A stretch of 64,000 nucleotides of DNA. It comes from Candidatus Hydrogenedens sp. Its GTDB lineage: Bacteria; Hydrogenedentota; Hydrogenedentia; Hydrogenedentales; Hydrogenedentaceae. The DNA lies in assembly GCA_049968235.1 (NCBI GenBank), contig JBMFRC010000006.1, forward strand, positions 107,866 to 171,865, given 5' to 3'. Below the pieces are notes generated by a model. That model ran no database searches and was not told the origin of the DNA. It was given only the letters and a program-made list of their open reading frames with translations. Shown here piece by piece: positions 4,751 through 64,000 of the stretch. Positions within the stretch are counted from its first letter, which is position 1, and each line of letters opens with the position of its first letter. A program made the position numbers and the translations under genes.

Positions 4751-4861
4751 TTAAATAACCCTCGTATAATATTGTGTAAGTATACTTTATATATAATATG
4801 ACATGTCAAAAAGGTATAATGTTTCTAAAATCTATATAATCTATATTTTTTACAACTATAT

Positions 4862-7682: not shown

Positions 7683-7686
7683 AACA

Positions 7687-8037
7687 CTACCCTCTTATAC
7701 CCAACTCATACAATTTTCCAACAATATTAAATGCAGTATCGGAAGATGAAAATAATAATATTTTTTCTTGTTCTGCTTTCTTCATGACATTATCATCGGG
7801 ATGGCGGTTTTGTATAAAAATGACTGCAGAAATTTCTGCATGGACACATACCGCTATTACATTGATATGTGTCTGTAAAGTAATTAGAATAGAGCCTTTT
7901 TTCGCATTTGCTAAAACATCACTCAGTAAATCCGATACATACCCTTCACTAACTTCTCTATCTAATAAGTCAGCAATTTCAGGAGTAAGTAATTCCAATT
8001 GTAATTCCTCATAAATTTCTTTTAATTTCTTACTCAT
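7687..8037 (-). CDS. DRTGG-domain-like small protein (paralog of 9631..9975)
   Basis: 116 aa. VSDLLSDVL...ILITLQTHINVIAVCVHAE...ILLFSSSDTAFNIVGKL aligns with the DRTGG protein at 9631..9975 (SDLIHSASENTLIITHLNHISL...AFLLVSSLEMYETCGVI). Confidence 0.55.
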   Translation of the reverse strand: MSKKLKEIYEELQLELLTPEIADLLDREVSEGYVSDLLSDVLANAKKGSILITLQTHINVIAVCVHAEISAVIFIQNRHPDDNVMKKAEQEKILLFSSSDTAFNIVGKLYELGIRG

Positions 8038-12883: not shown

Positions 12884-14092
12884 TTAACCGAATATTTCTC
12901 TGGCTGTATAAAACAACTTCGGAATATCTAAATAATAAGGACATTGCTCCATAGCAGTTCTAATCTGCTCTTTTGATAGATTTTCGATATATTTTTGAAT
13001 ATCTTTATAACAATAACGAGCCCAACTTTCATCTCCGTATCTCTTTGCATACAAAATACATCGCCAGACATCTTGCACATGTAGTTCTTCCTGCATACCT
13101 TTTTCACAATGCTGGTTACAACCGGCACAATAAAGATGTTGTGTCCTTTCTGCTATATTTCTCAACTGTTGTTTTTCCAACTCTGTTAATTTCATAGGTG
13201 TTATCGCTGCATACGCATTTTCATGAACATGTTGTATATTCCCCATTTGGGATGCAATACCTGCAATCCGTTCATCTTCCCACACTGCTTTCAATTTTGC
13301 CTGTATTTTTGTAAAATTTTTTGATGTCCATGGTAATAATTCTTCGCCATCATCCGGAATACTACCTAATGTTTTAATTGCTACCAGCCCTATTCCTGCT
13401 TCTGTGCATGCATCTATTGCTCTATTTAAATTATCCTTTCCCATTTCACGAAAACTATACTTAAACATAATCACATCAATTCCTCCTCCTAGCTTGCTGG
13501 CTTTCATCATAAGTTCATGTGCATTCCCGTGATGAGCACTAAAACCAAAATAGCGTATTTTTCCCTCTTTTTTTAATTTATCCCCCATATCTATAAACTC
13601 TTTGTCCAAAAATCGTTCGTGCTTAACAATATGCATGTAAAAAATATCTAAATAATCTGTCTCCAATTCCTGCAACGACAAATTTATATTCTCAACAAAC
13701 TTTTCAGGAGTGGCTTTGTCCTCTGTTTGATGAACTTTGGATGCAATTATCAACTTTTTTCTATCCCCAATTTGTTTAATAAAAGGAGCTATCGTTTTAT
13801 GAGATTGTCCTTCTGCATACATTTGGGCAGTATCTAAATGATTTACCCCTAATTCGTATGCACGATGCAATCTTCTATCATATACCGGATCCAAATTTTG
13901 ACAACATCCCATAATCAGGATAGGTGTTACAATATCCGTTTTACCTAATTTCCTGACTGGAACCTTAGTTCCGGGAGGTATTTTCCAGGAACTCGGCTTA
14001 TTTTCAGTCTCTTCCGAAAAACTTGTTTTAGTTAATATGCTTGCTGTAGTTACTGTTTTAATTGTTTGTTCGATAAAATCTCTTCGATTCAT
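12884..14092 (-). CDS. Tat-exported aldo/keto reductase with a C-terminal Cys-rich (probable Fe-S) extension
   Basis: MNRRDFIEQT twin-arginine signal. AKR core (LDTAQMYAEGQSHK..., IASKV). C-terminal CAGCNQHCEKG...C...C cluster. Confidence 0.8.
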   Translation of the reverse strand: MNRRDFIEQTIKTVTTASILTKTSFSEETENKPSSWKIPPGTKVPVRKLGKTDIVTPILIMGCCQNLDPVYDRRLHRAYELGVNHLDTAQMYAEGQSHKTIAPFIKQIGDRKKLIIASKVHQTEDKATPEKFVENINLSLQELETDYLDIFYMHIVKHERFLDKEFIDMGDKLKKEGKIRYFGFSAHHGNAHELMMKASKLGGGIDVIMFKYSFREMGKDNLNRAIDACTEAGIGLVAIKTLGSIPDDGEELLPWTSKNFTKIQAKLKAVWEDERIAGIASQMGNIQHVHENAYAAITPMKLTELEKQQLRNIAERTQHLYCAGCNQHCEKGMQEELHVQDVWRCILYAKRYGDESWARYCYKDIQKYIENLSKEQIRTAMEQCPYYLDIPKLFYTAREIFG

Positions 14093-18917: not shown

Positions 18918-19538
18918 TTTTACTTAGTTCGACATTCAACAATCTCTAACAAAAAGCCCCATTTACATCCAGTAATTGTTTACACAATTAATAAATAAAA
19001 CCTTATATCAAAACATCCCATTTTTTAAGCAGGGGCTTTTGGTATGCAAGCGTATTAATGTATAGGCGAAATTTTTTTGCCTCCCTCTCGGATAAATATT
19101 ATTTTTTCATCGGGTATGTGAGAATATGCGTGTTGATGCAATAAAAATGTCTGTATCACAATATTTTTTTATTCATTTATGCGTTTTTTAATTTATCTAG
19201 GACGGATTGATGTATATTTGCGTATTTATTAGTGCGAATGATTATTCGCCACTACATTTTTCTGTGTTCATGATAAATGCATCTTGTGGGAAATTCTATA
19301 AATTTGAATAGGGATTGCTGGTAAGGATTATATTGTTTTCGATAAGATAATCGAATAAAATTTATTAGATAGACAGAGGAAATAACATTAAAAGTCATAA
19401 AAAGAGGAATATATTAGGTCTCCACTAAGGGGATAAGTTTTAATTATCCATTTTGTTATCTATCTGGTCGCATTATTTTTTCTATCTATCCAATTTTGTT
19501 ATATCTATCTCTCCTGTTTAACCCATTACAAAATAATT

Positions 19539-49189: not shown

Positions 49190-50080
49190 TTATGTTATTC
49201 TTTCAACTTCATTCCGTATTGCTCGGATGTGTTCAGGTGTGGTTCCACAACATCCGCCAATAATTCTGGCTCCATTTTTATAAAAATTAAAAACATATTT
49301 TGCCAATATTTCCGGTGTTTCCGGATAATGAATTCCTTCATCAGTTAATTGAGGTTGCCCTGCATTGGGATATACTAAAAAGGGTATTTCTTTTTCAAAA
49401 GCATACATTTTTTGCAATAGGATATTCATGTCCTCAACGCTTAATGTGCAATTTACCCCAAGAATAGAAACTCCTATTTGTTTCATCTCTTGAATAAACA
49501 TTTCCGGTGTTGTACCCATAATCGTGTTAAAACGTTCTCCGATACTACTTCTCATAAAAGTAAAACTGACAACTATCTCCAATTTTGTATTTTCTTTTAC
49601 AGCATATACAGCACATCGAGCTTCATCCAAATCGGACATTGTTTCAATTGTGCAAGAATCTGCTCCCCCTTCTTCTAAGGCAATAGCCTGCTCACGGAAT
49701 GCTTCATACAACTCATCTTCGGATACATCACCCATCATTATAAATTTACCACTGGGACCGATAGAAGCAAGAACATGATGCTCTTCCCCTATTGCTTTTC
49801 TTGTTAGATAAGCAGATTTCCTGTTGATTTCTTTTGCTTCATCTTCTAAACCAAAAGACTTTAATTTTATCCGATTTCCACCGAAACTATTCGTTGAGAC
49901 CAAATCGGCTCCTGCTTCCTTATACGCAATGGCAATATCACCTATGATGTCCGGATGTTTAACATTCCATAGTTCTGGACATTCCCCTGCCTGCATGCCT
50001 GCTTTTATTAATAATGTTCCCCATCCCCCATCACCGACCAGAATTTTACCCGCCTTTATTGATGCTAAAATACTATCCAT
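49190..50080 (-). CDS. homocysteine S-methyltransferase domain protein (MetH Hcy-binding-module-like)
   Basis: The start was moved to the internal MDSIL Met at 50080, which overlaps the upstream stop by 1 nt. KILVGDGGWGTLL, GVNCT and GGCCGTTPEHI supply the Zn-binding Cys triad of Pfam S-methyl_trans. Confidence 0.8.
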   Translation of the reverse strand: MDSILASIKAGKILVGDGGWGTLLIKAGMQAGECPELWNVKHPDIIGDIAIAYKEAGADLVSTNSFGGNRIKLKSFGLEDEAKEINRKSAYLTRKAIGEEHHVLASIGPSGKFIMMGDVSEDELYEAFREQAIALEEGGADSCTIETMSDLDEARCAVYAVKENTKLEIVVSFTFMRSSIGERFNTIMGTTPEMFIQEMKQIGVSILGVNCTLSVEDMNILLQKMYAFEKEIPFLVYPNAGQPQLTDEGIHYPETPEILAKYVFNFYKNGARIIGGCCGTTPEHIRAIRNEVERIT

Positions 50081-50919
50081 TAACTTTTTTCTTCTCCCAT
50101 CCTTTTTATTAAGTGTTTCCATGTTTCTTTCACTAAAAAACTATTTGGGGCATCTTTTTCAACCTGTAAAAACAATTCCCATGGGAAAGCAATTGTTAAA
50201 TAGTTATCACCTATCTGCTTTTTAACATTTAATCGTGCAGAAATATCTGTCAAACCAATAACCGATTTAGGCTCTTCACCTTCTTTTATATATGCCCAAA
50301 TACCTATTGTCTGACATCCTGCTGAATACGGAGCAATGACGCTATTCATTGTTCTACTACGGAAATTGGCAAGGATTATTAATGCTGACAACTGATGTGG
50401 CTCCACTAAAAAAACGACCGTCCTGGGTTGTTCAATATCAGAATTCACTTGTGATAAAGGCTTGAAGATAACATAATCATATGGGATATCGATAATGGGT
50501 AATGATTGAATAAAATTCTGAACTTGCTCCGGTGCGGATAGATACCCTTCTCCATATAAGAAATCCTGTATAAATTCAGGTGTAACTAAATTTCTAATTT
50601 GTTCTGCGACACCTTCGCCAATAGGATTCCCCTTATTACCTGTCGAAAGAAATCTACAAAAACAATCTTCACCTCCGGGAAAATCTTTATAACAATTTCC
50701 GAAACCAAGTCCGATACCACCACCCCAACAGCCATAGGTCTCCCGAGAGAATACCGCTGTCTTCCCCTTGGCAGAACTAACGAACCACCACATTACACAA
50801 CCCCATTTGCCAGGTTTAAATTCTATCGCATGTTCTGGTTTTTGATTTGACCATAATATCGCTACAGGCTCATATTTCAAAGATAATAAATCCGAAAGAA
50901 TCGTTTTCATACTTTTCAC
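50080..50919 (-). CDS. Cys-rich conserved hypothetical protein, DUF169/COG2043-like
   Basis: 279 aa. Motifs KWGCVMWW, YGCWGGGIGLGFGNCY, GEDCFCRF, YSAGCQTIGIW. I assigned it to DUF169 from memory of the family pattern, not from a search. Confidence 0.5.
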   Translation of the reverse strand: MKSMKTILSDLLSLKYEPVAILWSNQKPEHAIEFKPGKWGCVMWWFVSSAKGKTAVFSRETYGCWGGGIGLGFGNCYKDFPGGEDCFCRFLSTGNKGNPIGEGVAEQIRNLVTPEFIQDFLYGEGYLSAPEQVQNFIQSLPIIDIPYDYVIFKPLSQVNSDIEQPRTVVFLVEPHQLSALIILANFRSRTMNSVIAPYSAGCQTIGIWAYIKEGEEPKSVIGLTDISARLNVKKQIGDNYLTIAFPWELFLQVEKDAPNSFLVKETWKHLIKRMGEEKS

Positions 50920-51597
50920 TTAACTTGCTAATCCTAATTTTTCATCGAGATATTCAATACAACCTTGTGGGTCTGGGGAATAGGCATCTGCACCTATTTT
51001 ATTGCAAAAGTCTTGTGTCAATGGTGCTCCTCCTACTACTATGGTAACATCAGGAACTTCCGATTTCAGGACTTTAACTGCTTTCTCCATGTTAATCATT
51101 GTAGTTGTTAACAGGGCACTCATTCCGACAACAGCACCCGGATTTTCTTTTAATACTTGAAGGAATTTTTCAGGGGAAGTATCAACGCCCAAATCTATAA
51201 CTTTCCAGCCAGCACCTTCCATCATCATTCGAACAAGATTTTTACCTATATCGTGTAAATCCCCCTGAACTGTTCCTATAATAAAAATTCCTTTATGTTT
51301 TGCTTCGCCCCGTTCAAAAGCACTTTTTAAAAAGGGCATACCCGCATTCATTGCTCGCGCTGACATTAAAACATCCGGAACAAACACTTCATTACAACTA
51401 AACTTTTTACCAATAACACTCATACCTTTCATCAAGCCATCACTTAATATTTGACTTGCAGGTATTCCCATTGCAAGTGCTTGTTGAACTAATTCTTCTG
51501 CTCCATCCTGTCCTTTTAAGTCAGGTGGATAAGGAGAATTTTTGTTAATTTTCCCTCTTTCAACGCAAGTTGCAATTTGTTCCAAAATATTTTCCAT
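50920..51597 (-). CDS. cobalamin-binding corrinoid protein (B12-binding_2 cap + B12-binding Rossmann domain)
   Basis: GTVQGDLHDIGKNLV (DxHxxG), then ...GAVVGMSALLTTT and VVGGAPL, typical of MetH-like and methyltransferase corrinoid proteins. Confidence 0.75.
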   Translation of the reverse strand: MENILEQIATCVERGKINKNSPYPPDLKGQDGAEELVQQALAMGIPASQILSDGLMKGMSVIGKKFSCNEVFVPDVLMSARAMNAGMPFLKSAFERGEAKHKGIFIIGTVQGDLHDIGKNLVRMMMEGAGWKVIDLGVDTSPEKFLQVLKENPGAVVGMSALLTTTMINMEKAVKVLKSEVPDVTIVVGGAPLTQDFCNKIGADAYSPDPQGCIEYLDEKLGLAS

Positions 51598-51660
51598 AGT
51601 TATTTCCTTCTCTTGTTTATAAACCTTTGTTAGATAAACTCTCTTTTAATTATTAATAAA

Positions 51661-51984
51661 TTAAGAAATCCTTTTCCAATTGTGACCCCCGCCTTTTTTA
51701 CATGGGACATTGCCATAAGGGCTATCCTTTGACCTTATTAGTAAGCCACATTTACTACATTGATAATTTCTATCTCCGACTTCACCCAAACAACGCCAGG
51801 AATGTCCACCGCCTGCATTATAACTTCCCATCATGGGTTGATTTACTGATTCTATATGCGTCCCACATTTGGGGCAATAATAGTTTTTTAGGGATTTTAC
51901 TTCGGCTAATGTGGAATGAGTAAGAAGAAATAGAAAAAGAATTAAACACATTATAGTTATGAGAAAATATATTTTTCGTTTCAT
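51661..51984 (-). CDS. small secreted protein with a duplicated CxxCG...GGGHxW module
   Basis: Signal peptide. YYCPKCGTHIES...GGGHSWRC and YQCSKCGLLIRS...GGGHNWKR form an internal duplication. Confidence 0.4.
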   Translation of the reverse strand: MKRKIYFLITIMCLILFLFLLTHSTLAEVKSLKNYYCPKCGTHIESVNQPMMGSYNAGGGHSWRCLGEVGDRNYQCSKCGLLIRSKDSPYGNVPCKKGGGHNWKRIS

Positions 51985-52090
51985 AATAAATCTCCTTTCC
52001 AGATTGTTATATTTTCTATAATAACATAGTTAATATATAAAAATGATATAATTCCTCCGTTCAAATCAAATTCAATCTTTAAGTATTAGC

Positions 52091-53275
52091 ATGAATATTC
52101 CAGTACAAGAAAATAAAAAAGAGATTTCTAACCTATCCTTATTTCAACTTTGTTGGGAATTTTTGAAAATAGGGACAATTGGTTTTGGTGGGGGCTGGGT
52201 AGTAATTTCACTAATTCATAATAGTTTTGTAAAACAAAAAAGACTTATCAGTGATGAAGAGTTTGCCATAGGAATTGGTCTCAGTCAATTTTTAGGGGCT
52301 TTCGCTGTAAATACAACTTCATTTGTTGGTAGAAAATTGAAGGGGATAAAGGGTTCTATTTTATCTACATTTTTCTTTTTGCTTCCTTCCTTTGTAATCG
52401 TCTGCATTCTTACAGGATTTTATTTCAGATTCAATAAAACATTTGATTTTGGGAATATATTAAAAGGCATTTCTCCTGTTATTATCGCACTTATGCTTTC
52501 TACTGCATTTGATTTATCTATTAAGATTAAGAAGGACATTGTATTTATACTCATTCTGGGTTTTGTAATTATCGGTGGGCTATTTAATATAAATTATGTG
52601 ATATTACTTATTGCTTCTGGTTTCTTTCAAGTATTATCTATCTATACAAAAAGAGATAGAACAGATAAGAATCTCTCCCATTCTTTTTATTTTATACAGT
52701 ATCCTTTTAATTTCCTTTCAGGTGTTTCCGTTTCCTTTTCAATTATAGGAGTGAATTCTTTTTTTACCGTAGGTCTGGTGTTTTTGGGAATAGGTTTTAT
52801 CTTTTTTGGAGGTGGGTATTCACTTCTTCCACTACTTCAAAATATTTTTGTAAATAAACTTCATTGGATTTCAAATCACGATTTTATCGTAGGAATAGTG
52901 ATCAGTCAGGCGACACCAGGTCCATTTGCAATAATTGCGACTTTTATGGGGTATTATTTAAAAGGTGTTATGGGTGCTTTTATCGCAACTTTCATGATAT
53001 TTTTACCTGCATTTGTTTTCTTACAAATACTTATTGGTCTGCAAAATAACTTTAAGGATAACGAAAATGTTCAGGCTTTTATAAAAGGTATTAATATTGC
53101 CACAATAGGACAATTACTACTTTTATCTTATCACTTTTTTATTGAAATATTAACCCCTTTTTCTATCCCTTTGATTATTTTCCTAATCATTAGTTTTGTT
53201 TTGTTCTTTATTTACAAAATGCCCTCTCTTCTTCTTATTGTGGTAGGAATTATTTATGGACTTCTTTTTATCTAA
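52091..53275 (+). CDS. chrA: chromate transporter (CHR) family protein
   Basis: Two homologous halves carrying GFGGGWVV and FGGGYSLLPLL motifs. Confidence 0.8.
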   Translation: MNIPVQENKKEISNLSLFQLCWEFLKIGTIGFGGGWVVISLIHNSFVKQKRLISDEEFAIGIGLSQFLGAFAVNTTSFVGRKLKGIKGSILSTFFFLLPSFVIVCILTGFYFRFNKTFDFGNILKGISPVIIALMLSTAFDLSIKIKKDIVFILILGFVIIGGLFNINYVILLIASGFFQVLSIYTKRDRTDKNLSHSFYFIQYPFNFLSGVSVSFSIIGVNSFFTVGLVFLGIGFIFFGGGYSLLPLLQNIFVNKLHWISNHDFIVGIVISQATPGPFAIIATFMGYYLKGVMGAFIATFMIFLPAFVFLQILIGLQNNFKDNENVQAFIKGINIATIGQLLLLSYHFFIEILTPFSIPLIIFLIISFVLFFIYKMPSLLLIVVGIIYGLLFI

Positions 53276-53281
53276 TAGAAA

Positions 53282-54772
53282 TTATTTCAAAATCTTACGA
53301 CCTTCTGAAGACTTAATACCGGAAATAATTCGCTCAAAGGCTTCTTCATTGGAGCAGGCACTCATTGCTTCCTCTTTCGTTACTAATCCTTTTTGATATA
53401 ATTCCACAGCATATTGGTCGAAACTCTTCATATCACCATCCACCTCCATTATCCCATGAAGTTTATCAAGATCACCTTCAAGAATAGCCTCACGAACAAT
53501 AGGTTTACCACCTAATAATATTTCGAGACATGGAATTCTGCCACCACCAACTCGTTTCAATAACCTCTGGCACACCACTCCCTGAAGCGAATACGCTAAT
53601 TCCTGTCGGATTAAATCACGCTCATTCTGTGGGAAATAACTGATGATACGATTGACAGTATCTACCGCTGTCGTTGTATGGAGGGTACTAAAAACGAGGT
53701 GTCCTGTTTCTGCTGCACTTAATCCTGCGCGAATGGTATCTCTATCACGCATTTCACCTACGAGAATTACATCGGGGTCTTCACGCAAGGAACCACGCAA
53801 AGCATTGGCAAAGGATAAGGTATCTCTACCTACCTGCCGTTGAGAAACAATACTCTTTTTATCGGAATATACATATTCAATAGGGTCTTCAATAGTTATT
53901 ATATTAGCGGAACGAGTTGCATTTATGTAATCTACCATTGCTGCTAATGTTGTAGATTTACCGCTTCCTGTGATACCACATACAAGGAATAGTCCTCTCT
54001 GTTTATTGCATACATCACGAACCACTTCCGGGATATTTAATTTTTCAAATGGTAACGGTTCTTCAGGAATCAAACGTATAGCCAGTGCGGGGGCACCCAT
54101 TTTTATATAACCGCTACAACGAAGATAACCTACCCCTGCTGCGTGATACTGGAAACTTGTCTCGCGTTCTGTGAAGAGCATATCAACCTGGTCTTGACCC
54201 CCCAATTGATATAACAAGTCTTTCATATCCTCTGCATTTAACGGAGGCAAATCTAACGGTGCAAGGTCGTTATCTACACGAATATAAGGCTTGGCTCCGG
54301 CTCTCAAATGCAAATCTGAGGCATTTTTGGCTCTCATCATTTCTATCATCACATTGATGTTAAAACCTGTATTCACATAGGAAAGCACTTCTAATTGCCA
54401 TGTGCGAGAACGAAGTGATGATTTGCTATATTTTTCTATGACATCATCGATAGGTAGAAGAAGCGGTAATTGCTTCCAGTTAAATCCGGGAACTAAAACT
54501 TTGCATAAGCCATCTTCACATCGGGAACGAATACCTATCCGGGTATCATCAAATGCCTTATTTATTTCATTATGATTTATAGATTCTTTGGTTGCAAATG
54601 TAATTTGCATCGAATCTACCTTCTTACTCAAATCGTTAGACTTGGCAATAAGACTACATCCATCCGTAGTAATTTTTACCTCAGATGGGACACCTGTTGC
54701 CCGGATTACTTCATGAAGCCCGATTCTCAAAATATCCACGATAGTTGATTTAGATTGACTACCTATAAACAT
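53282..54772 (-). CDS. pilT: PilT-family type IV pilus retraction ATPase with an N-terminal extension of about 150 aa
   Basis: Walker A GITGSGKSTT. Asp/His boxes and the PilT core begin near residue 150. Confidence 0.75.
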   Translation of the reverse strand: MFIGSQSKSTIVDILRIGLHEVIRATGVPSEVKITTDGCSLIAKSNDLSKKVDSMQITFATKESINHNEINKAFDDTRIGIRSRCEDGLCKVLVPGFNWKQLPLLLPIDDVIEKYSKSSLRSRTWQLEVLSYVNTGFNINVMIEMMRAKNASDLHLRAGAKPYIRVDNDLAPLDLPPLNAEDMKDLLYQLGGQDQVDMLFTERETSFQYHAAGVGYLRCSGYIKMGAPALAIRLIPEEPLPFEKLNIPEVVRDVCNKQRGLFLVCGITGSGKSTTLAAMVDYINATRSANIITIEDPIEYVYSDKKSIVSQRQVGRDTLSFANALRGSLREDPDVILVGEMRDRDTIRAGLSAAETGHLVFSTLHTTTAVDTVNRIISYFPQNERDLIRQELAYSLQGVVCQRLLKRVGGGRIPCLEILLGGKPIVREAILEGDLDKLHGIMEVDGDMKSFDQYAVELYQKGLVTKEEAMSACSNEEAFERIISGIKSSEGRKILK

Positions 54773-54888
54773 AAATAATGCCCTTTATTAAGCCCGTTAT
54801 TTTTGGTATTAAATTATATAAAATCTATAAATATTGAAAATGTTAACATAATATAATAAAATTTCTAATCAAAAGTCAATATTTTTAT

Positions 54889-55977
54889 CTATAGTTTTTC
54901 AAAAATTTTTCTTATTTTTTCATCAATAATTCCGATTTCAAGTTCATGTGTTCTTGTTTCACCCGCCTTTAGATAGTCCATTTTCCCTCTTTTTTCTGTT
55001 TCATCCCTTCCTAAAACGCCTGCATTGCAGGGTTCTAAGCCAATCACATATTCGCCTGTGCCTAACATTTTCCATTGGACTAATTGGGGTAATTGTAATT
55101 TCTTATATTTAATATAAACACCATAGAAATTAGGTTCGAGTTCTGGTTTCGCATGATAAATACCTATCACCACTTTTCCATTTTTCTGTGTTTTGACATC
55201 GTGAAAATATACACGTTCCTGATAGTTTTCAGCAGGGGGCGTTATCTCATACCAGGCATCTTTTCCCTGTTTTGCTATTTTATCTCTGGGGACAGTTTTT
55301 TGGGCAGGGATACAAACCTTTGCACCTTTACAAACAACAGGCCAGCCGATATTGCAATGATATAACATCATGAAGGGTGTTTTACGAAAGCCTTCGTTTG
55401 TTATGGTATCCGTAATCGTAAAAGAATTGGCTCCTAAATATGTTTCTATCTTTCTTTCTACAACAATATTTTCAGCAAAAAGAGCGGTTTGTCTCATCTT
55501 ACCTTTTATAGATAGAAAATATTTTCCGTTTATCCACTTTTTTTCAATGCAAACATCTTCTGCGGGTATATTGCTTATTCTACCATGCAATCCATCGCCT
55601 GTTAATTCACTTTTTTCACATGGGGGACCAACATTGGTTACACCACAGGTGGTTAAAAGACCACCGAAATAACTTCGTAACCAGCGAATACCTTCGGGCT
55701 CGTAATAAAATGGGGCAACATCTCCCGGTGTAGAACGCCACCCTAACGGAATACCTTTATAACTTGCATGGGAAATATCCATACAACGGTCTAAATAGAC
55801 AGAAAACTCCAAACCGGAACCGTTATATACAAATGCAGACCGTGATGGAAATGCCCTGCCATCTTGAAGTATGGCTGTCTGGATACCTGCAATCTGGTCT
55901 ATCTGACCTGCATATTTTTTTATTTCCATTGGAAATAATTCATACCAATTTTTTGTCATTCTTGATTTTTCTTTCAT
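54889..55977 (-). CDS. hypothetical protein (possibly sugar-epimerase-like/DUF4432-like)
   Basis: 362 aa, no clear motif. 3-nt gap from the upstream dehydrogenase gene. Confidence 0.4.
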   Translation of the reverse strand: MKEKSRMTKNWYELFPMEIKKYAGQIDQIAGIQTAILQDGRAFPSRSAFVYNGSGLEFSVYLDRCMDISHASYKGIPLGWRSTPGDVAPFYYEPEGIRWLRSYFGGLLTTCGVTNVGPPCEKSELTGDGLHGRISNIPAEDVCIEKKWINGKYFLSIKGKMRQTALFAENIVVERKIETYLGANSFTITDTITNEGFRKTPFMMLYHCNIGWPVVCKGAKVCIPAQKTVPRDKIAKQGKDAWYEITPPAENYQERVYFHDVKTQKNGKVVIGIYHAKPELEPNFYGVYIKYKKLQLPQLVQWKMLGTGEYVIGLEPCNAGVLGRDETEKRGKMDYLKAGETRTHELEIGIIDEKIRKIFEKL

Positions 55978-55980
55978 ACC

Positions 55981-56952
55981 TTACCCTTTCGTATTTTGGA
56001 AATCCATTAATACTTTCAGGCAATCGTTGTGTTGAGCAATCTCAAAGGCTTTTATGGCATCAACAAAAGCGAATTTATGGCTTATCATATATTCTACTTC
56101 TACTTTCTTTTCCGCTAATGCTTTCAAGGCAGGGGCAAATGGACCGCATCGAGAACCGATAATACTAATTTCATTTACAACCAATTTAGAAAGATTTAGG
56201 GTATTCAGTTTTTCTGTGGTGCTTTTCATAATTAATGTCCCCTGAGGTCGTAATATATCTAAGGCAAAGGATTGGGCAGTAGGATTCCCTGTGGCATCTA
56301 TTACGACATCTATATTCTTATCTTTCCAATAGTCAAATAAACATGTATCAATTCCAAGTATATTTAATAAATACAATTTTGTGGAGTGTTTTCCTACACA
56401 TACCAGCCTTCGGACATAGGGATTTATCACTTGAGAAATAATTTGACCCATTCGACCATCACCCAAAACAACGACAAAATCATCCGGATTAAATTGGACT
56501 TGTTCAAGAATGCGATAACACGCTGCGACAGGCTCTGTAAATACGGCAATTTCATTCGGAATATCATCCGGAACAATGTGTAAATTTTTTTCAGGAAGTG
56601 TGGTATATTCAGCAAAGACTCCATTTCTATTATATATCCCGAGCACAGTTCGGTTCAGACAATGGTTCGACATACCTTGCAGGCAGAATGCACAACGATA
56701 GCATGGACAATTTATCTCTCCAACAGCCCGTTTACCAATCAGATTTTTATTCTCTGCTTCAATAACTTCACCTACAAACTCATGCCCTAAAATCCCCTTA
56801 AAATCCATGTAGCCTTTCACAATCTCCAAATCCGTCTTGCATATCCCTGCCATGCATACTCGAATTAACACTTCTCCCTCTTTCGGAACAGGTATCTCTG
56901 TTTCCTTTATACACAAATTCCGCCCATCAAAGCAAAGTGATTTCATTTTCAT
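55981..56952 (-). CDS. Zn-dependent medium-chain alcohol/polyol dehydrogenase
   Basis: CMAGICKTDLE...GHEFVGEV catalytic-Zn motif. Structural-Zn Cys cluster CPCYRCAFC. Rossmann VLGDGRMG. Confidence 0.8.
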   Translation of the reverse strand: MKMKSLCFDGRNLCIKETEIPVPKEGEVLIRVCMAGICKTDLEIVKGYMDFKGILGHEFVGEVIEAENKNLIGKRAVGEINCPCYRCAFCLQGMSNHCLNRTVLGIYNRNGVFAEYTTLPEKNLHIVPDDIPNEIAVFTEPVAACYRILEQVQFNPDDFVVVLGDGRMGQIISQVINPYVRRLVCVGKHSTKLYLLNILGIDTCLFDYWKDKNIDVVIDATGNPTAQSFALDILRPQGTLIMKSTTEKLNTLNLSKLVVNEISIIGSRCGPFAPALKALAEKKVEVEYMISHKFAFVDAIKAFEIAQHNDCLKVLMDFQNTKG

Positions 56953-57407
56953 AGTATAAGACCTTTGAATAAGTCATACGAGTTAGATGATATAAATTAT
57001 ATACGAGTATGGAGGTGAGGGAAAAAATGAAACGAGAAGAGAAGGAAGTGATTGCTATAAATATAGTAGAAGTATTGCGGGTTGAATAACAAAGCAAGGA
57101 AAAACTGTAAATGGGAAAAGGTCCACGCAATATGGTAAAAAAGATAGAGCAAACAAGTTTCAAAGATTACGAAATGTCCCATCAGAAACCGACCCATCAT
57201 AGATGCTTTTTGAGACAGATGCAAGAGGTGATACCATGGAAGGAACTTTGAGTAGAAGTGTATTTAGAGAAGAGCATACAAAGCGAACCGGGGGATAGCG
57301 GAAACTTCCGTCTTTACTATTTTATGAATTGTTAAACTGTATGCGATGATTTCTCTATATTCTCTTTGCAAGTAATTTGAATAATGGCGATAGCACGACT
57401 TTTTTCT

Positions 57408-57491
57408 CCGTGTTTCTCTGTGTTCTCTGTGGTGATTATATTTCTTTTCATCATGGAGGACTCGGAGAATTACAGAGGACACAGAGAGAGG
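57408..57491. repeat. imperfect inverted repeat (about 16/17 bp arms: TTCTCTGTGTTCTCTG / CAGAGGACACAGAGAGA) separated by about 40 bp
   Basis: Seen by eye inside an ORF-poor 1.1-kb stretch. Confidence 0.35.
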
Positions 57492-58045
57492 AGCATATCA
57501 TTTCTTGTTAATGACAAAATATAAAAGGAAGCCAAAGGAGAGTTCTGCATAGATAACAAAAAGATAGAAAAACGGACAGAAAATAGTAAATAAAATAAAT
57601 CAAAAGAGATACAGACTTTTGTTTTTTAATTTTTTATCGGGATTTTATCTCGTAAAAAACATGTATAATTTATACCATCGACTTATACACGAATTATTCA
57701 GAGGCTCATTTAGCAAATGACATGCGGATAAAAAATAAAAGGGAATCTTAATCTTATTAGTATTAATGTTTCTACAAAATTTTTTCTCTATGTCCAAAAC
57801 ATAAATCTAATTGTGAAGGCAATATCCTGAAGGCTGTTCCATGGTTATGGGTTCTACCATCCGCATATTGTCCGATTCTTATATCTATTAGAATTGTTCC
57901 CTTCCTTAGTAAACAAACAAAATTTTTTAAAGAAAATCCATTTAAAAACCATGCTTCATTAAACCAGAATTCCTCATTAGCCCCCTACCCCGAGAATCTG
58001 CATTAACATATAGTAATTTAGGCATTTTTCTATCAAATGACTTTT

Positions 58046-58477
58046 TTAAAATGTCCTTGTCCCAATATCCAATAATTTCATTTTGTCCGTTACTAAATTT
58101 ATTTTATATCTTTTTATAACAATCTTAAAACCAGGTTTCCCCTTTAACATATTAATTTTTTTAGCAGAAATAGTGCTATGCAATTCTTTTTTGCCAGTTT
58201 TATGGATAGATTTATAACCAAATTTTTTCAATAATGTATCATTTGCTTTAGGAGGTAATGGAGATTTAGTAAATAAAGTAAGCATACTACTCGTATTTTT
58301 TCTTACAGATTTTAATTCAATATTGTGCAAATTGGGACCGGAAATATTATTTTCTTCTATACCTAAAAGGTCTTCTAATGTTTTACCGATGCCTGTACTA
58401 CCTGCTCTGTGGGTTTTAATATAACCCATATCTTTTATTTCTTTTAATCTCTTAAGTAGAGAACTATAACCCTTCAT
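58046..58477 (-). pseudogene. truncated MvaI/BcnI-like type II restriction endonuclease (N-terminal 143 aa only)
   Basis: THRAGSTGIGKTLEDLLGIEENNISGPNLHNIELKS resembles the N-terminal motif of MvaI/BcnI-family enzymes. The ORF is roughly half the expected length. Confidence 0.4.
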
Positions 58478-58548
58478 AATCTCCAGAAATCGAGTATATA
58501 TTCGAAAGTTGTACTTAGTGTTATATAATTACTTGGGAAACCGAATAT

Positions 58549-58779
58549 TCATACTTTCTTTACTAAATTTCTTTTATCCCAAATAATAATATTTCTTAAT
58601 TCGTAACCAATCCCTTCTAATGCTTCTATAATATAGGCATGAGTTGGATACCTATGATTATCTTCCCATAAATCATTAACATTAATAACACAATGAGCTT
58701 TAGGCTTTAACAATGGTGGTATTTTTTTATAAATTTCCGTCAATGATTTAATATATTCTTTCATCTGCATAGTACCCAA
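58549..58779 (-). pseudogene. fragment of an N4/N6 DNA methyltransferase (N6_N4_Mtase family)
   Basis: 76 aa, TTG-initiated fragment. YIIEALEGIGYELRNIIIWDK matches the conserved ..iiW.K segment of N4-C/N6-A methyltransferases. There is no DPPY or SAM-binding part in frame. Confidence 0.4.
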
Positions 58780-58922
58780 ATCTCGAGGATTGTCAGAATA
58801 TTGTTGAATCTTAAATTATGTAGAAATAAACTATTTTATTTAAGTAGTAAAACAATTTCTCTCCTCCCTTTTGAATCTTAAAAGGTAAAATTTTCGCCAC
58901 AATGTAGTAATAGTTTTCCAAC

Positions 58923-59015
58923 TGGCGGAGAGAGTGGGATTCGAACCCACGGTGCCGGGTAAACCGGCACAACGGCTTTCGAGGCCGCCGCCTTCAACCA
59001 CTCGGCCATCTCTCC
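58923..59015 (-). tRNA. tRNA-Ser (anticodon CGA)
   Basis: Reverse complement reads GGAGAGATGGCCGAGTGGTTGAAGGCGGCGGCCTCGAAAGCCGTTGTGCCGGTTTACCCGGCACCGTGGGTTCGAATCCCACTCTCTCCGCCA. Long variable arm, anticodon loop CTCGAAA, T-loop GTTCGAATC, 3' CCA encoded. Confidence 0.9.
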
Positions 59016-59329
59016 GTTGGGATATTATCCCTTTTTTATACTACATTTCAGAGATTTAATTCAAAAACTTTGATTGATTTTATTGGAAACTTTTAAGTAA
59101 TAAAAATTAAATTTTCTATTCATTACCATAGTTTTGTAAGATAAATCAAGCAGGGGGCATTAAGTTCAAAACAGGACAATACTTATTCTTTTATTTTGTT
59201 TCAAAATCAAACACACAAATTATATAATATATAAGTTACTGTTAAATATATATTTACAACATTTACATTGTTTGGCATAATGATTGCTTTATTAAAACCA
59301 GTGAAAACATTAAGATAAGGAGTTTAAAT

Positions 59330-59524
59330 GTGACAATAGAACGGTATTTGCGACTTATTGCAGGGAGTTTTGTGTTACTCAGTGTGGCTCTTGCCTATTT
59401 ACATAGTCCTTACTGGCTATTATTCACTGCTTTTGTTGGGTTAAATCTTTTTCAATCAGGTATTACTAACTGGTGTCCTATGGTTTGGATATTGGAAAAA
59501 TTAGGTGTACCTCATCAAAAATAA
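59330..59524 (+). CDS. DUF2892 (YgaP-C-terminal-like) small inner-membrane protein
   Basis: 64 aa, two TM helices. RYLRLIAG...GLNLFQSGITNWCPM pattern. Confidence 0.55.
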   Translation: MTIERYLRLIAGSFVLLSVALAYLHSPYWLLFTAFVGLNLFQSGITNWCPMVWILEKLGVPHQK

Positions 59525-59586
59525 TTGAAAGATAATAAACTTTTTGTTATCATTATATAAATCAAAAAGATAAAAAGGAGCATGTT

Positions 59587-62490
59587 ATGAACCCCGGATT
59601 TAAAATGATAGAATTTTCTGTTAATCGTCCCAAAATGGTAGTTGCTATCATCTCAATAATCACTTTGGTAATTATTGCCCTTGTAGCCCTGCCTAATTTA
59701 TTTCCGCAAACATTTCCTATGCTCAGTAAGATTAGTATAGATACAGATCCTGAAAACATGCTCAACCAGAAAGAAGCGGTGCGTGTCTTTCATAATGAGA
59801 TGAAAAAGCAATTTACTATTTATGAAATTGTAGTTTTAGGGATTGTAAATGAAAAACATCCGCAGGGGGTTTTTAATGCGGATACATTGAAAAAGATATA
59901 TGAGGTAACAGAGTTTGCCAAAACGCTTCAATGGCAAAACCCGACTGACCCTGAGAAATATGATGGTGTAATAGCCAGTGAACTTATTGCTCCGTCAACT
60001 GTGGATAATGTTGAACAGGGAGGCATCGGGGAAGTTCGTTTTGAATGGCTTATGAATACACCTCCTGCAACGGATGAAGAAGCATTAGAAATAAAGAAGA
60101 AAACTGAACGTCTTCCGTTCTTGAAGGATACGCTTATTTCTGAAGATGGGAAGGCTATTGCTTTATATATCCCCATTACAGCCAAGAACCAGAGTTATCG
60201 GGTTAGTAAAGCATTAGAAAGTAAAATTGCCACTTTTAAGGGGAATGAAAAATATTACATCACGGGATTACCTGTTGCCAATGATACCTTTGGGGTAGAG
60301 ATGTTCAAACAAATGGCTATTTCTTCCCCTCTTACTATGTTGGTTATTTTCTTACTGATGTTATTCTTCTTCCGTAAATTACTTTTAATCCTCTCCCCTC
60401 TTATTGTTGCTATGATAACAACCATCTGGACTATGGGACTTTTAGTAATTTCCGGGAATACCGTTCATATCATGAGTTCTATGATACCTGTTTTTATGAT
60501 GCCCATATCGGTGTTGGATTCCATACATATTCTTTCCGAATTCTTTGAACGATACACTCCCCAAAAACCGAGAAAAGAGATTTTGTTATCCGTAATGGAT
60601 ACCCTTTTCATGCCCATGTTATATACTTCATTGACCACACTTGCAGGTTTCGCATCCCTTGCTCTTACACCAAATCCACCGGTTCAAATCTTTGGTATTT
60701 TTATTGCTCTTGGAGTTGCTATCGCATGGATTTTAACCATGACTTTTATCCCTGCCTATGCCATGCTTCTATCCGAAAAGAAACTCAAAAACTTCGGTGC
60801 CTCTGCGAATAAAACTTCTCATGAAGCAGAGGAACATACATTGTTAGCGAAAATATTATATGCCCTCGGCAAATTTACTTACAATCAATATAAACTCATT
60901 CTTTTAGGCACGGCTATAATGATAGTTATTGCTATCTATGGAATAACGCAAATAGAGGTAAATGACAATCCTACGCGATGGTTCAAATCCACCCATAGAA
61001 TCAGGATAGCGGATACTGTTCTAAACAAGCATTTTGGCGGAACATATATGGCGTATCTGGCTTTGAAATCCGATGAAAGCCAATTCTCATTTGATAATTA
61101 TCAAAAAGGTTTTAAGGAACGGCTTGCTAAGTGGTTCAAAGAGAATGGAGCGGAAGAAACAACTGCGAATGAAATTATTGAAAAGGTTTACTTGGAACTC
61201 ATCAATTTACATAAAAAAACCAGTGATACGGAATTAAAATCTACACTTGAATTGCTTCGAAATTGGTGTGATGAGCAACTGAACAATGCAGACAGCAAAA
61301 TTCAAGATACATGGGACCTTGCTGAAAGGTTTGTGGGACTGGAACTTCAACGGAGCGAAATATTCAAACAACCCGAAGTGCTTCATTACATTGACCAATT
61401 AAATGACACGATGATAAAAACAGGTATCGTAGGCAAAACAAATTCTTTGCCTACCCTTATAAAAACCGTTCATAGAGAGCTTATGGGAGGTGATGAGAAG
61501 GAATATCGGATACCGGAGAGTTCCCGGGCTGTGGCTCAATGTATCATGACCTATGAAGGTAGCCATCGACCTCAAGATATTTATCACTTCGTTACACCCG
61601 ATTATAAATCTGCCAGCATCTGGGTTCAATTAAAGAGTGGCGATAACAAAGACATGACTAAAGTTGTTGAAACAATAGATAAATTTATAAAAGATAATCC
61701 TCCACCATTCCCTATGAGACATGAGTGGTATGGTCTGACTTATATCAATGTTGTCTGGCAGAAAAAAATGGTCGTTGGAATGTTAGAAGCATTTTTAGGG
61801 TCGTTCCTGGTGGTTTTAGCCATGATGATAATTTTACTCCGTTCCGGGCTATGGGGACTGCTAAGTATGATACCACTTACAATCACTATCGGCGCTATCT
61901 ATGGAGCCTTAGGGTTAATTGGAAAATATTACGACATGCCTGTTGCCGTGTTATCATCATTAACACTCGGTCTTGCAGTTGACTATGCCATTCATTTCCT
62001 CGCAAGAGGTAGAGTTGCCTATAATGAAACTGGCTCGTGGGAAAAAGCCCTCATGATTTTATTCGGAGAAACCGCACGGGCATTGTATCGCAATATCATC
62101 GTTATCGCATTGGGCTTTACTCCATTATTGTTCACACCGCTTGCTCCCCATGTTACAGTAGGAACCTTTATGACTTCTATTATGCTATTCTCCGGCGTAG
62201 GAACATTAATTATCCTACCTGCACTAACTCGACTTTTCGAACCGCTCCTCTTCCCTAAAACAAGATTTTGTAGTATTACCTGCATGTGCAACACCTGCAT
62301 CGTTACCGGGATTACAATTGTATCTGCTGCTGCTATTAATATCTACCAATTCCTAAATATAGGCTGGACCACTATCAGTTGGGGTTCATTGATAGCCATT
62401 ATCATCCTTTCCATAATTTGCTTCATCAGTTCTCGTAGAAATCAATGCAAACCTTGCCTTGAAACACCCATAGAAAATCAAAAAAATTAA
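59587..62490 (+). CDS. RND-superfamily MMPL/HpnN-like transporter
   Basis: 967 aa. Two 6-TM bundles, each preceded by a large periplasmic domain. SSD-like TM region. Confidence 0.8.
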   Translation: MNPGFKMIEFSVNRPKMVVAIISIITLVIIALVALPNLFPQTFPMLSKISIDTDPENMLNQKEAVRVFHNEMKKQFTIYEIVVLGIVNEKHPQGVFNADTLKKIYEVTEFAKTLQWQNPTDPEKYDGVIASELIAPSTVDNVEQGGIGEVRFEWLMNTPPATDEEALEIKKKTERLPFLKDTLISEDGKAIALYIPITAKNQSYRVSKALESKIATFKGNEKYYITGLPVANDTFGVEMFKQMAISSPLTMLVIFLLMLFFFRKLLLILSPLIVAMITTIWTMGLLVISGNTVHIMSSMIPVFMMPISVLDSIHILSEFFERYTPQKPRKEILLSVMDTLFMPMLYTSLTTLAGFASLALTPNPPVQIFGIFIALGVAIAWILTMTFIPAYAMLLSEKKLKNFGASANKTSHEAEEHTLLAKILYALGKFTYNQYKLILLGTAIMIVIAIYGITQIEVNDNPTRWFKSTHRIRIADTVLNKHFGGTYMAYLALKSDESQFSFDNYQKGFKERLAKWFKENGAEETTANEIIEKVYLELINLHKKTSDTELKSTLELLRNWCDEQLNNADSKIQDTWDLAERFVGLELQRSEIFKQPEVLHYIDQLNDTMIKTGIVGKTNSLPTLIKTVHRELMGGDEKEYRIPESSRAVAQCIMTYEGSHRPQDIYHFVTPDYKSASIWVQLKSGDNKDMTKVVETIDKFIKDNPPPFPMRHEWYGLTYINVVWQKKMVVGMLEAFLGSFLVVLAMMIILLRSGLWGLLSMIPLTITIGAIYGALGLIGKYYDMPVAVLSSLTLGLAVDYAIHFLARGRVAYNETGSWEKALMILFGETARALYRNIIVIALGFTPLLFTPLAPHVTVGTFMTSIMLFSGVGTLIILPALTRLFEPLLFPKTRFCSITCMCNTCIVTGITIVSAAAINIYQFLNIGWTTISWGSLIAIIILSIICFISSRRNQCKPCLETPIENQKN

Positions 62491-62513
62491 CCATAAAGAT
62501 AAGGAGATTTACC

Positions 62514-63311
62514 ATGAAACATGTATCTATCTTATTAACAGCAATTGTGGCAGTTTTCCTGCTCATGCCAAAAGGATTTTCCCAGGACCTGACAGATGTA
62601 AATGAAATTGTCAAGAAAGCCAATCATTCCGCTTATTACAAAGGAAAAGATGGCAAAGCCCATGTCAAAATGACCATCAAAGATGCGCAGGGTAGAGAGA
62701 GAACACGCGATTTATCTATCCTACGCAAAAATATGGACGATAAAGACGAAGAACAACACTTCTATGTATATTTTCATCAACCTGCAGATGTTCGAGATAC
62801 TGTATTTATGGTGCATAAACATGTCGGTAAAGATGATGACCGCTGGTTATACCTTCCCGCTCTCGATGTTGTTAAAAGAATCGCCGCTTCCGATGAACGT
62901 ACCAGTTTCGTCGGTTCCCATTTCTTCTACGAAGACGTCTCTGGTAGAGGTATCGACGAAGATAATCATGAATTAATTGAAACCACTCAAAACTTCTATG
63001 TCATCAAAAATACACCGAAAGACCCCAAAACCGTTGAGTTCGATTCTTACAAAGTATATGTTCACAAAGGCACATTCCTGCCAACTAAGGCAGAATATGA
63101 AAAGAATGGAAAAGTCTACAGAATTATGGAAGCCCTCGAAGTAAAAGAAATTCAAGGCTATCCCACTGTAGTCAAAGCGAAAATGACAGATACCAACATC
63201 GGCGGAGAAACCTTATTAGAATACTCTGATATCCAATATGACATTAACCTACCCGACGATATTTTCACTGAACGCTATCTGAGAAAAGCCCCCAGAGAAT
63301 ACCTAAAATAA
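62514..63311 (+). CDS. LolA-like outer-membrane lipoprotein-sorting protein (MMPL partner)
   Basis: Signal peptide. 265 aa. DRWLYLPALDVVKRIAASDERTSFVGSHFFYEDV matches the conserved core of LolA-fold proteins that pair with RND/MMPL transporters. Confidence 0.65.
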   Translation: MKHVSILLTAIVAVFLLMPKGFSQDLTDVNEIVKKANHSAYYKGKDGKAHVKMTIKDAQGRERTRDLSILRKNMDDKDEEQHFYVYFHQPADVRDTVFMVHKHVGKDDDRWLYLPALDVVKRIAASDERTSFVGSHFFYEDVSGRGIDEDNHELIETTQNFYVIKNTPKDPKTVEFDSYKVYVHKGTFLPTKAEYEKNGKVYRIMEALEVKEIQGYPTVVKAKMTDTNIGGETLLEYSDIQYDINLPDDIFTERYLRKAPREYLK

Positions 63312-63363
63312 ACCTATATAGTATAAGGCAATTTTTTCATTGAAAAGACCGGAAACCTGGCTT

Positions 63364-63398
63364 AGGGGCGAAAAAATTTTCGCCCCTATATTTGTATT
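63364..63398 (+). terminator. intrinsic terminator AGGGGCGAAAA-AA-TTTTCGCCCCT followed by a T-rich run
   Basis: 11-bp perfect stem immediately after the LolA-like gene. Confidence 0.6.
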
Positions 63399-63606
63399 AT
63401 CACGATGCAAACATATGTAAACCAACAATAAAATCCGTATTTAGTTGATAACAACCTTACCCGCCCCCCCCTGATTTTCCACCCACCCACCCCCGACCAG
63501 CATTGTTTCTCCTAATCCCTATCTTTTATACTCCACTCTCTAATACCACAAAATATAATAATTTACCCCCTTTATACGATAATGCTGGTCTATTTTCCTC
63601 TAACTT

Positions 63607-64000
63607 TTTTTATTTTGTGGGAAGTGCCCGCTCTGCTATAATGCCAGTTGACGTTGACTTTGAATTGTTTGTGCTTTGTTTTGAAGGAAGTGCTCGCTCT
63701 GCTATAATTATCTGCATTAGAGTTAAAGCATCAATCATGCTATGTTTTGAGGGAAGTGCTCGCTCTGCTATAATGAGCACAGTAATTAGAACATTAGTCG
63801 GATTGCTATGTTTTGAGGGAAGTGCTCGCTCTGCTATAATTAAAGCTTGCTACAAATGTGTGGAAACATTGCTATGTTTTGAGGGAAGTGCTCGCTCTGC
63901 TATAATATTTTTTCCCGAAAAATAATATCTCTTGAAGCTATGTTTTGAGGGAAGTGCTCGCTCTGCTATAATCTTCGGTATGTGAACGTTCATCTTCATC
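63607..64000. CRISPR. CRISPR array running off the window end: 36-nt repeat GCTATGTTTTGAGGGAAGTGCTCGCTCTGCTATAAT, 30-nt spacers
   Basis: Repeats at 63607 (degenerate 5' half), 63673, 63739, 63805, 63871 and 63937. Spacers at 63643, 63709, 63775, 63841 and 63907 (30 nt each) and 63973 onward (cut off). Repeats 3-6 are identical, repeat 2 has 2 mismatches, repeat 1 is degenerate. Confidence 0.9.

Follow-up and report, generated by a model that had tools for sequence, protein, structure and literature searches.

A CRISPR array at the end of the window

The stretch of DNA analysed here (hereafter the window; 64,000 nt, positions 107,866–171,865 of contig JBMFRC010000006.1 of Candidatus Hydrogenedens sp.) ends inside a CRISPR array. 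Six 36-nt repeats with the consensus GCTATGTTTTGAGGGAAGTGCTCGCTCTGCTATAAT occupy positions 63607–63972 of the + strand, and they recur with a period of exactly 66 nt, so that five complete 30-nt spacers are followed by the first 28 nt of a sixth (63973–64000), where the window interrupts an array that runs on past it. The repeat core is confined to the array within the window and had no match in 100 shuffles. An initial annotation, made from the sequence alone, had described this 36/30 geometry, and the measured period agrees with it.

Repeat 1 (TTTTTATTTTGTGGGAAGTGCCCGCTCTGCTATAAT; 63607–63642), the extra and oldest one, has six mismatches to the consensus, five of them within its first 12 nt, while its 3' 14 nt are intact. 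This corresponds to the earlier description of a first repeat degenerate in its 5' half: the −35 element is lost and TG-TATAAT is kept at 63634–63642. Repeat 2 (63673–63708) has two mismatches and reads TTGAAG-N16-TG-TATAAT, and repeats 3 to 6 (63739–63774, 63805–63840, 63871–63906 and 63937–63972) are perfect copies of the consensus. In repeat 3, TTGAGG lies at 63747–63752, TG at 63766–63767 and TATAAT at 63769–63774, and repeats 4, 5 and 6 carry the same promoter-like elements.

The initial annotation had stated that every repeat ends in an extended −10 element, and TGCTATAAT is indeed the 3' end of all repeats (6 of 6). The resemblance to a promoter goes beyond the −10 element alone, since a −35-like TTGAGG sits 16 nt upstream of it. 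Read in the sense of the CRISPR RNA (crRNA), repeats 2–6 follow the pattern TTGAGG (TTGAAG in repeat 2)-N16-(TG)TATAAT, which agrees with the sigma-70 consensus at 10 of 12 positions, plus the TG of the extended −10. The motif TGNTATAAT has 11 copies on both strands of the window, and the array contains 6 of these; chance predicts about 7 over 128 kb of strand. To meet it precisely at the 3' end of one given 36-mer has a probability of about 5e-5, and its placement at the exact repeat end is therefore not background. Of the five other copies, at least two (at 48463, minus strand, and 52044, plus strand) are intergenic and lie upstream of correctly oriented open reading frames (ORFs).

Related loci and subtype

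A tblastn search of the window for Cas9, Cas1 and Cas2 found no cas gene (lowest E 0.16), and exact-pattern scans with the repeat gave 0 matches in a species-representative genome collection and 0 in viral contigs. A metagenome scan with the repeat returned five contigs (L001–L005). Two of them, L001 and L002, are pure arrays of the same repeat as the window's, with 36 and 33 repeats and diverse spacers. L004 is syntenic with window positions 49817–63777 at 80–84% identity and has an array at the equivalent position, in which the repeat is identical to the window's and the first repeat is likewise degenerate at its 5' end. The remaining two, L003 and L005, are 99.85% identical to each other and combine the identical repeat with cas genes: cas1, cas2 and a 50-nt leader are followed by the repeat in reverse orientation. 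In L003 the order is gltX, the trans-activating CRISPR RNA (tracrRNA), cas9, cas1, cas2, the 50-nt leader and the repeat, directly consecutive. The L003 Cas9 (1060 aa) matches TIGR01865 with 743 bits and is already annotated as Cas9 by NCBI, and Cas1 scores 249.9 bits against the type II model TIGR03639 (cas1_NMENI; cut-off 120).

The 116-kb genome contig L006, which was reached by a search with Cas1, has a repeat that differs from the window's by one mismatch; a second genome scan, with a Cas1 profile, gave 80 loci. L006 holds a contiguous module of tracrRNA, cas9 (1068 aa), cas1, cas2, at least 113 repeats and a distal flank homologous to that of the window. L088 has the same gene order as L003 and L006. 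Both csn2 and cas4 are absent from the cas loci with the identical or one-mismatch repeat (L003 and L006), and because neither gene accompanies cas9-cas1-cas2 in the related loci, the system is, judged by its gene content, type II-C. In a search of the PDB, the best solved relative of this Cas9 is Neisseria meningitidis Cas9 (E 2e-76), and other type II-C Cas9s come next; the names in the output are generic, and the entries are those that we take to be N. meningitidis Cas9, other type II-C Cas9s and Campylobacter jejuni Cas9.

Some variation among these loci was also seen. L089, whose Cas9 is 83% identical to that of L003, has a single repeat, without spacers, between the leader and the distal flank (4597–5600), and a PDDEXK_3-family ORF, which is not a Cas4 family match, is inserted between its cas1 and cas2. 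In L006 (10973–11167) two direct repeats of 55 nt, identical and 140 bp apart, stand between cas1 and cas2 and resemble a small insertion or duplication, and in the L006 array (11.7–19.2 kb, 113 repeats) several blocks of 2–4 spacers are duplicated.

That the array is of type V or VI within class 2, or else of subtype II-A, II-B or II-D, is effectively refuted. The only point in its favour is the absence of cas genes from the window, whereas every gene-adjoining contig with this repeat shows cas9-cas1-cas2 and neither csn2 nor cas4, the Cas9d model gives this Cas9 151 bits against a cut-off of 375, and a tracrRNA is present. The type II call of the initial annotation is borne out by related loci that carry cas9, cas1 and cas2 only, with the TIGR03639 and TIGR01865 matches given above. 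The cas9/cas1/cas2 genes and the tracrRNA that it had recommended looking for are present in contigs with the identical or one-mismatch repeat, and the type V or VI effector that it had named as contrary evidence appeared in none of the gene-bearing contigs with the repeat, all of which show cas9-cas1-cas2.

The window array is probably joined to such a cas operon, as we infer from the identical-repeat contigs and from metagenome-assembled genomes (MAGs) of the L004-like relative, whose repeat is identical. Judged by shared accession prefixes, these MAGs hold both the LolA-like protein of the array flank (at least 90% identical) and this Cas9. An orphan or decaying remnant without a functional adjoining cas9 in this genome would fit a window without cas genes, the reduction of L089 to one repeat with no spacers, and the fact that continuity from the window to the cas genes rests on relatives. 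Such a remnant is nevertheless very improbable, as repeats 3–6 are perfect copies, contigs with the same repeat hold 33–36 units with diverse spacers, in L003 the identical repeat comes with intact cas9, cas1 and cas2, and the L004-like MAGs, though not the window's own, appear by their accession prefixes to carry the flank protein together with this Cas9.

tracrRNA and direction of the crRNA

The window contains no anti-repeat, the best local scores (22–23) being inside the range of shuffled repeats (22–28), and the initial annotation had likewise seen neither an anti-repeat nor a tracrRNA there. In three related loci a predicted tracrRNA lies upstream of cas9 on the opposite strand, at 7628–7739 (−) of L003, about 6590–6696 (−) of L006 and about 290–402 (−) of L089. 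It is the same three-part element in each, consisting of the anti-repeat ATTATAGCAGAGTGAGCATTTCTCCTCTTAACATAG, a nexus-like hairpin (TAAGGAG...CTCC), and a second hairpin with a GC-rich terminator and T run. The predicted duplex between the window repeat and the anti-repeat has −53.9 kcal/mol and spans the full 36 nt, interrupted by an internal loop and a bulge. Rfam reported only a tRNA in the window at the gathering threshold and no match in L003 and L006 at E <= 1, which places this tracrRNA outside the curated families.

In L003 the putative tracrRNA promoter, TTGACA-N17-(TG)TATAAT, agrees with the consensus at 12 of 12 positions, and a terminator lies 3' of the tracrRNA. By its sequence, this promoter also indicates that canonical sigma-70 promoters are in use in the lineage. 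The tail of the tracrRNA lies 3' of its anti-repeat, and therefore the sense of the crRNA is the + strand of the window, antisense to the cas genes and running toward cas2. Moreover, 14 more distant relatives with 36–38-nt repeats (several from Planctomycetota, others from various phyla) have a repeat-like element upstream of cas9 on the opposite strand, and in these a strong terminator is confined to the side that implies a crRNA antisense to cas.

Two further features of this region were noticed. The DNA opposite the tracrRNA anti-repeat (L003 7700–7800; L006 6660–6760) is itself repeat-like and keeps TGCTATAAT pointing to cas9. A palindrome, TTGACATGTCAA in L006 and TTGAAATGTCAA in L003, is common to the promoter of the tracrRNA and a candidate promoter of cas9, and therefore the two promoters would overlap back to back.

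Conservation of the promoter-like elements

The comparison of repeats took in 21 distinct ones of Hydrogenedentota, Planctomycetota and other phyla, each oriented antisense to cas, an orientation confirmed by the tracrRNA for most of them. Positions T31, A34 and T36 do not vary at all and A32 hardly does, and TAnAnT at positions 31–36 is nearly invariant overall. TAnnnT is present in 20 of the 21 repeats and TTG at positions 9–11 in 16 of 21, while the middle of the repeat varies freely.

The arrangement is known from experiments in two homologous systems. In C. jejuni, internal starts from a −10 element in the upstream repeat were mapped experimentally (Dugar et al. 2013, PMC3656092), and N. 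meningitidis gave mapped internal starts as well (Zhang et al. 2013, summarised in PMC5965381). According to Pearson et al. 2015 (PMC4607530), who considered 132 type II systems, a gnTAnaaT promoter stands at the 3' end of type II-C repeats, and a convergent antisense array with a degenerate proximal repeat is a general type II-C feature; in Table 1 of that article, the repeats of Clostridium perfringens and Haemophilus parainfluenzae also end in TGCTATAAT. The conservation of TAnAnT was considered as a possibly new comparative result and was rejected as such, being already contained in that article. The reading of the repeats as promoter-bearing is therefore supported, and it is already known for type II-C. 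The likeness to the Neisseria and Campylobacter type II-C arrangement had been recognised in the initial annotation, and it holds in that the array is antisense to cas and TGCTATAAT forms the repeat 3' end in the crRNA sense.

The flank upstream of the first repeat

Upstream of the array and after the LolA-like gene (62514–63311), a predicted intrinsic terminator lies on the + strand at 63363–63398, with an 11-bp stem TAGGGGCGAAA/TTTCGCCCCTA (stem-loop 63363–63388) and a T-rich tail; it is one site against 0.3 expected in shuffles. A C-rich tract with CCCACCCACCC follows at 63460–63494 (+), the minus strand of which shows a G-quadruplex-type motif (G5TG3TG3TG2...G8), and the flank as a whole (63460–63606) contains 55 C and 9 G. 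The motif CCCACCCACCC is unique in the window. Among the 99 fetched loci it recurs at the same array flank in L004, L006, L089 and L093, and the sole other match, in L032, is taken as chance.

Between the C-rich tract and the array, RNAfold predicts a long-range helix of 13 bp on the + strand (63495–63590), with arms at 63495–63507 (GACCAGCAUUGUU) and 63578–63590 (GAUAAUGCUGGUC) and a 70-nt G-free loop. Its energy is −16.2 kcal/mol (z = −5.7), and none of 200 shuffles was as stable. The helix is also predicted in L004, L006, L089 and L093, in L006 with compensatory changes and a 22-bp stem. A U-rich tract (63591–63606, +) separates the 3' arm from repeat 1. Thus the initial annotation was right about a terminator and a C-rich tract in the 300 bp upstream, but not in saying that there was nothing else, as the conserved helix with its U-rich tract lies there too.

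Feussner et al. 2025 (PMC12080349) described an extraneous crRNA (ecrRNA), lacking a guide, that could arise from the first repeat, and three measures against it, namely mutations in the first 15 nt of that repeat, upstream terminators, and helices over the would-be guide; all three are found in 3.5% of systems. Within this framework the window appears to have all three measures. The first 18 nt of repeat 1 would pair with the 3' half of the tracrRNA anti-repeat, the portion bound by Cas9, at −7.7 kcal/mol, against −19.1 for the consensus. The 3' arm of the helix and the U-rich tract together occupy the position of the would-be ecrRNA guide, although the arm (63578–63590) overlaps only the first 9 nt of the 25-nt region upstream of repeat 1 and a 70-nt loop is atypical.

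The conserved flank of about 130–150 nt lies at 63460–63606 in the window, about 13780–13918 in L004, about 19215–19400 (−) in L006, 5583–5712 (−) in L089 and about 4723–4870 in L093. The neighbouring genes on the array side are different: LolA-like and MMPL genes in the window, ClpS and ClpA in L006, MaoC and a secretin in L089. The gene neighbourhoods on the cas9 side differ as well, and homology there begins exactly at the tracrRNA terminator. Conserved across differing neighbours, the flank is therefore part of a module that moved or was rearranged. A more specific idea, which we consider speculative and rather unlikely, is that this stretch of about 150 nt, comprising the (CCCA)n/template-strand G-quadruplex motif, the helix and the U-rich tract, might be a dedicated insulator in a mobile CRISPR-Cas module, co-inherited with tracrRNA, cas9, cas1, cas2 and the array. 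It might stop incoming transcription before the first repeat, by Rho-dependent termination on a rut-like, C-rich RNA or by a G-quadruplex block. If true, such a mechanism would go beyond the three published strategies against ecrRNA. The function of the flank is in any case proposed here from its position, conservation and predicted folding.

A 20-nt inverted repeat with 85% complementarity (63546–63565 and 63601–63620) links the helix loop to the U-rich tract and the first 14 nt of repeat 1, and might sequester the extra repeat in a pseudoknot. Pairing of the flank loop with the 5' part of repeat 1 was unsupported by minimum free energy or partition-function folding (P <= 0.14), both of which are nested methods with pseudoknots outside their scope. 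Two GC-rich Hydrogenedentota type II-C loci show other structures at this place. In L099 (about 12920–12990, −) a perfect 15-nt inverted copy of the first repeat's own 5' end (CCCACAAACCACAGC ... GCTGTGGTTTGTGGG) stands before that repeat, which resembles the leader-repeat hairpin of type II-A, a hairpin not seen in type II-C according to the literature, and in L097 (about 11984–12035, −) a perfect 20-bp hairpin abuts a 5'-truncated first repeat.

Spacers and the polarity of the array

The initial annotation had placed the window at the leader-distal, old end of the array, and this position is supported by the related loci, in which the leader and cas operon lie past the other array end. L001 and L002, which come from different samples, share the consecutive spacers 27–28 and then differ completely toward cas2. 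This pattern fits an acquisition of spacers at the cas2-proximal, transcription-downstream end, where type II-C systems are reported to acquire them (PMC12080349). Over 4.9 kb a further locus, L093, matches the window at 98.7% identity, and it shares the flank and the degenerate form of repeat 1.

L003 (12372–12421), L006 (11636–11684) and L089 (5485–5535) share a conserved 50-nt leader, placed between cas2 and the newest repeat. Within it lie an inverted, partial copy of the 5' end of the repeat (CCCTCAAACATA) and a weak hairpin with a T run, which could terminate both cas2 transcription and transcripts from the promoter of the last repeat.

The five complete spacers of the window are spacer 1 (GCCAGTTGACGTTGACTTTGAATTGTTTGT; 63643–63672), spacer 2 (TATCTGCATTAGAGTTAAAGCATCAATCAT; 63709–63738), spacer 3 (GAGCACAGTAATTAGAACATTAGTCGGATT; 63775–63804), spacer 4 (TAAAGCTTGCTACAAATGTGTGGAAACATT; 63841–63870) and spacer 5 (ATTTTTTCCCGAAAAATAATATCTCTTGAA; 63907–63936), all on the + strand. 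Their comparison with viral databases, suggested by the initial annotation, was run on IMG/VR and INPHARED and gave no target. In IMG/VR, where 3' 21-mers were used and spacer 3 was searched as a degenerate 27-mer, there were 0 matches for these spacers and 0 for a recurrent spacer pair of L006. Against the INPHARED phages, 74 spacers and then the whole L006 array gave nothing significant, the best being a chance match to a Staphylococcus phage (E 0.7). In total, 174 spacers of this repeat family had no match in INPHARED, the window or the fetched loci, and no self-target was found. No protospacer having been found, no protospacer adjacent motif (PAM) is derivable. Spacer 3 of the window is nearly identical to spacer 29 of L001, which is from another sample, with an offset of 3 nt, and this overlap suggests a mobile element that is recurrently targeted.

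Elsewhere in the window, a 143-aa ORF at 58046–58477 (−) encodes a product with a Pfam match to the MvaI/BcnI restriction endonucleases, and a 90-nt tRNA gene lies at 58926–59015 (−), about 4.6 kb upstream of the array.

A model for crRNA production

Taken together, we consider it probable (about 0.78) that the window holds the cas-distal, oldest end of a Candidatus Hydrogenedens type II-C array whose crRNAs come from promoters embedded in the repeats. The crRNAs would be read on the + strand toward the leader, with cas2, cas1 and cas9 lying past the window on the opposite strand. Each repeat would act as a sigma-70-type promoter composed of TTGAGG, a 16-nt spacer ending in TG, and TATAAT as the last six bases, from which RNA polymerase would start about 6–8 nt into the downstream spacer. 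The transcript would then consist of a guide of about 23–24 nt followed by the next repeat, and this repeat would pair over its full 36 nt with the anti-repeat of the tracrRNA of about 110 nt encoded upstream of cas9, the duplex being bound by Cas9. RNase III may trim the 3' side and would be dispensable for defining the 5' end. New spacers would enter at the cas2-proximal, transcription-downstream end. The first repeat would serve no spacer, having kept its promoter half and lost its tracrRNA-pairing half, and the terminator and the conserved helix with the U-tract would keep outside transcription from making an extraneous crRNA of repeat 1.

The crRNAs could instead come mainly from a long precursor that arises by read-through or from an upstream promoter that escaped recognition, and that RNase III cuts with the tracrRNA as in type II-A. 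TAnAnT would then be kept for other reasons, for instance recognition of the leader-side end of the repeat by Cas1-Cas2 or pairing with the 5' end of the tracrRNA, and there would be no significant promoter in the repeats. The conserved hexamer is indeed the leader-proximal terminus of the repeat, the anti-repeat pairs over the full repeat length, hexamer included, and in Neisseria RNase III processing occurs beside internal initiation (as summarised in PMC5965381). However, the + strand shows no promoter-like site from the terminator at 63363 as far as repeat 2, a stretch in which the terminator, helix and U-tract are found instead. The −35-like TTG is also conserved, at the correct spacing of 16 nt, and in the window, L004 and L093 it is precisely the promoter half that survives in the degenerate first repeat. 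Internal starts have, in addition, been mapped experimentally in two homologous systems. We therefore regard a predominantly long precursor as unlikely, if less so than an orphan array.

Several points weigh against the model of repeat-embedded promoters at the old end of a complete type II-C system. The window ends inside the array, and the linkage to cas9 would rest on the contigs with the identical repeat and the MAGs of the L004-like relative. Promoter firing in this organism is likewise a proposal drawn from motif, position and homology. TAnAnT is at the leader-proximal end of the repeat, and therefore its conservation could partly reflect recognition by the Cas1-Cas2 integrase or pairing with the tracrRNA. 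No protospacer was found in IMG/VR or INPHARED, so the orientation is without an independent, PAM-based check. Finally, the spacers beside repeat 1 are entirely different between L093 (4870–5108) and the window (63607–63842), which a simple model of addition at one end does not predict; the difference could stem from a loss of old units or from recombination between arrays.

Comparison with known type II systems

The tracrRNA is encoded upstream of cas9 in Neisseria as well, and between cas2 and the array in C. jejuni; the tracrRNA of the present system, upstream of cas9 and divergent from it, differs from the latter placement. N. meningitidis Cas9 is also the closest solved relative (E 2e-76). 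The type II-C systems of N. meningitidis and N. lactamica have the same content of cas9-cas1-cas2 only, 36-nt repeats and 30-nt spacers, with an array likewise convergent with and antisense to the cas genes (PMC5965381 and PMC4607530). As given there, the Neisseria repeat ends in TGCTACAAT, compared with TGCTATAAT in Hydrogenedens. Outside the last 8–9 nt the two repeats are unrelated, and where the Hydrogenedens repeat has the −35-like TTGAGG at 16-nt spacing, the Neisseria repeat has TCCCTT; internal starts, mapped in Neisseria, are predicted here. The minimal type II-C system of C. jejuni (PMC3656092) has a degenerate first repeat and an upstream terminator/hairpin (PMC12080349), as here, while its Cas9 is smaller (984 aa, against about 1060 aa).

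The pattern of Pearson et al. 2015, with a TAnAnT repeat end, an antisense array and a degenerate proximal repeat, is the same as that of the window and its 21 relatives, as far as the available text of PMC4607530 describes it; that text, its Table S1 species list aside, makes no mention of Hydrogenedentota, Planctomycetota or a −35-like element. The mutated extra repeat, upstream terminator and helix over the would-be guide of Feussner et al. 2025 (PMC12080349) all appear to be present in the window. Unlike the descriptions in that article, the helix here has a 70-nt C-rich, G-free loop and is preceded by a (CCCA)n/G-quadruplex motif, and the flank in its entirety accompanies the CRISPR module from one genomic context to another. 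The type II-A system of Streptococcus pyogenes shares Cas9, the tracrRNA:crRNA duplex and the 36/30 geometry. In contrast, type II-A has csn2, a single leader-driven precursor on the cas strand, acquisition at the transcription-upstream end, and a repeat that ends in C without a −10 element (PMC4607530).

In biological terms, a known rule of type II-C is confirmed, not broken. The type II-C systems with promoter-like repeats now include the Candidatus Hydrogenedens lineage and relatives in Planctomycetota and other little-studied phyla. The related loci also supply a parts list for a new Cas9 orthologue of about 1060 aa, namely the repeat, a predicted tracrRNA of about 110 nt with promoter and terminator, Cas9, Cas1 and Cas2, which makes it a candidate editing tool. 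The conserved, putatively insulating flank is a modest lead, and it bears on how type II-C arrays avoid guide-less extraneous crRNA.

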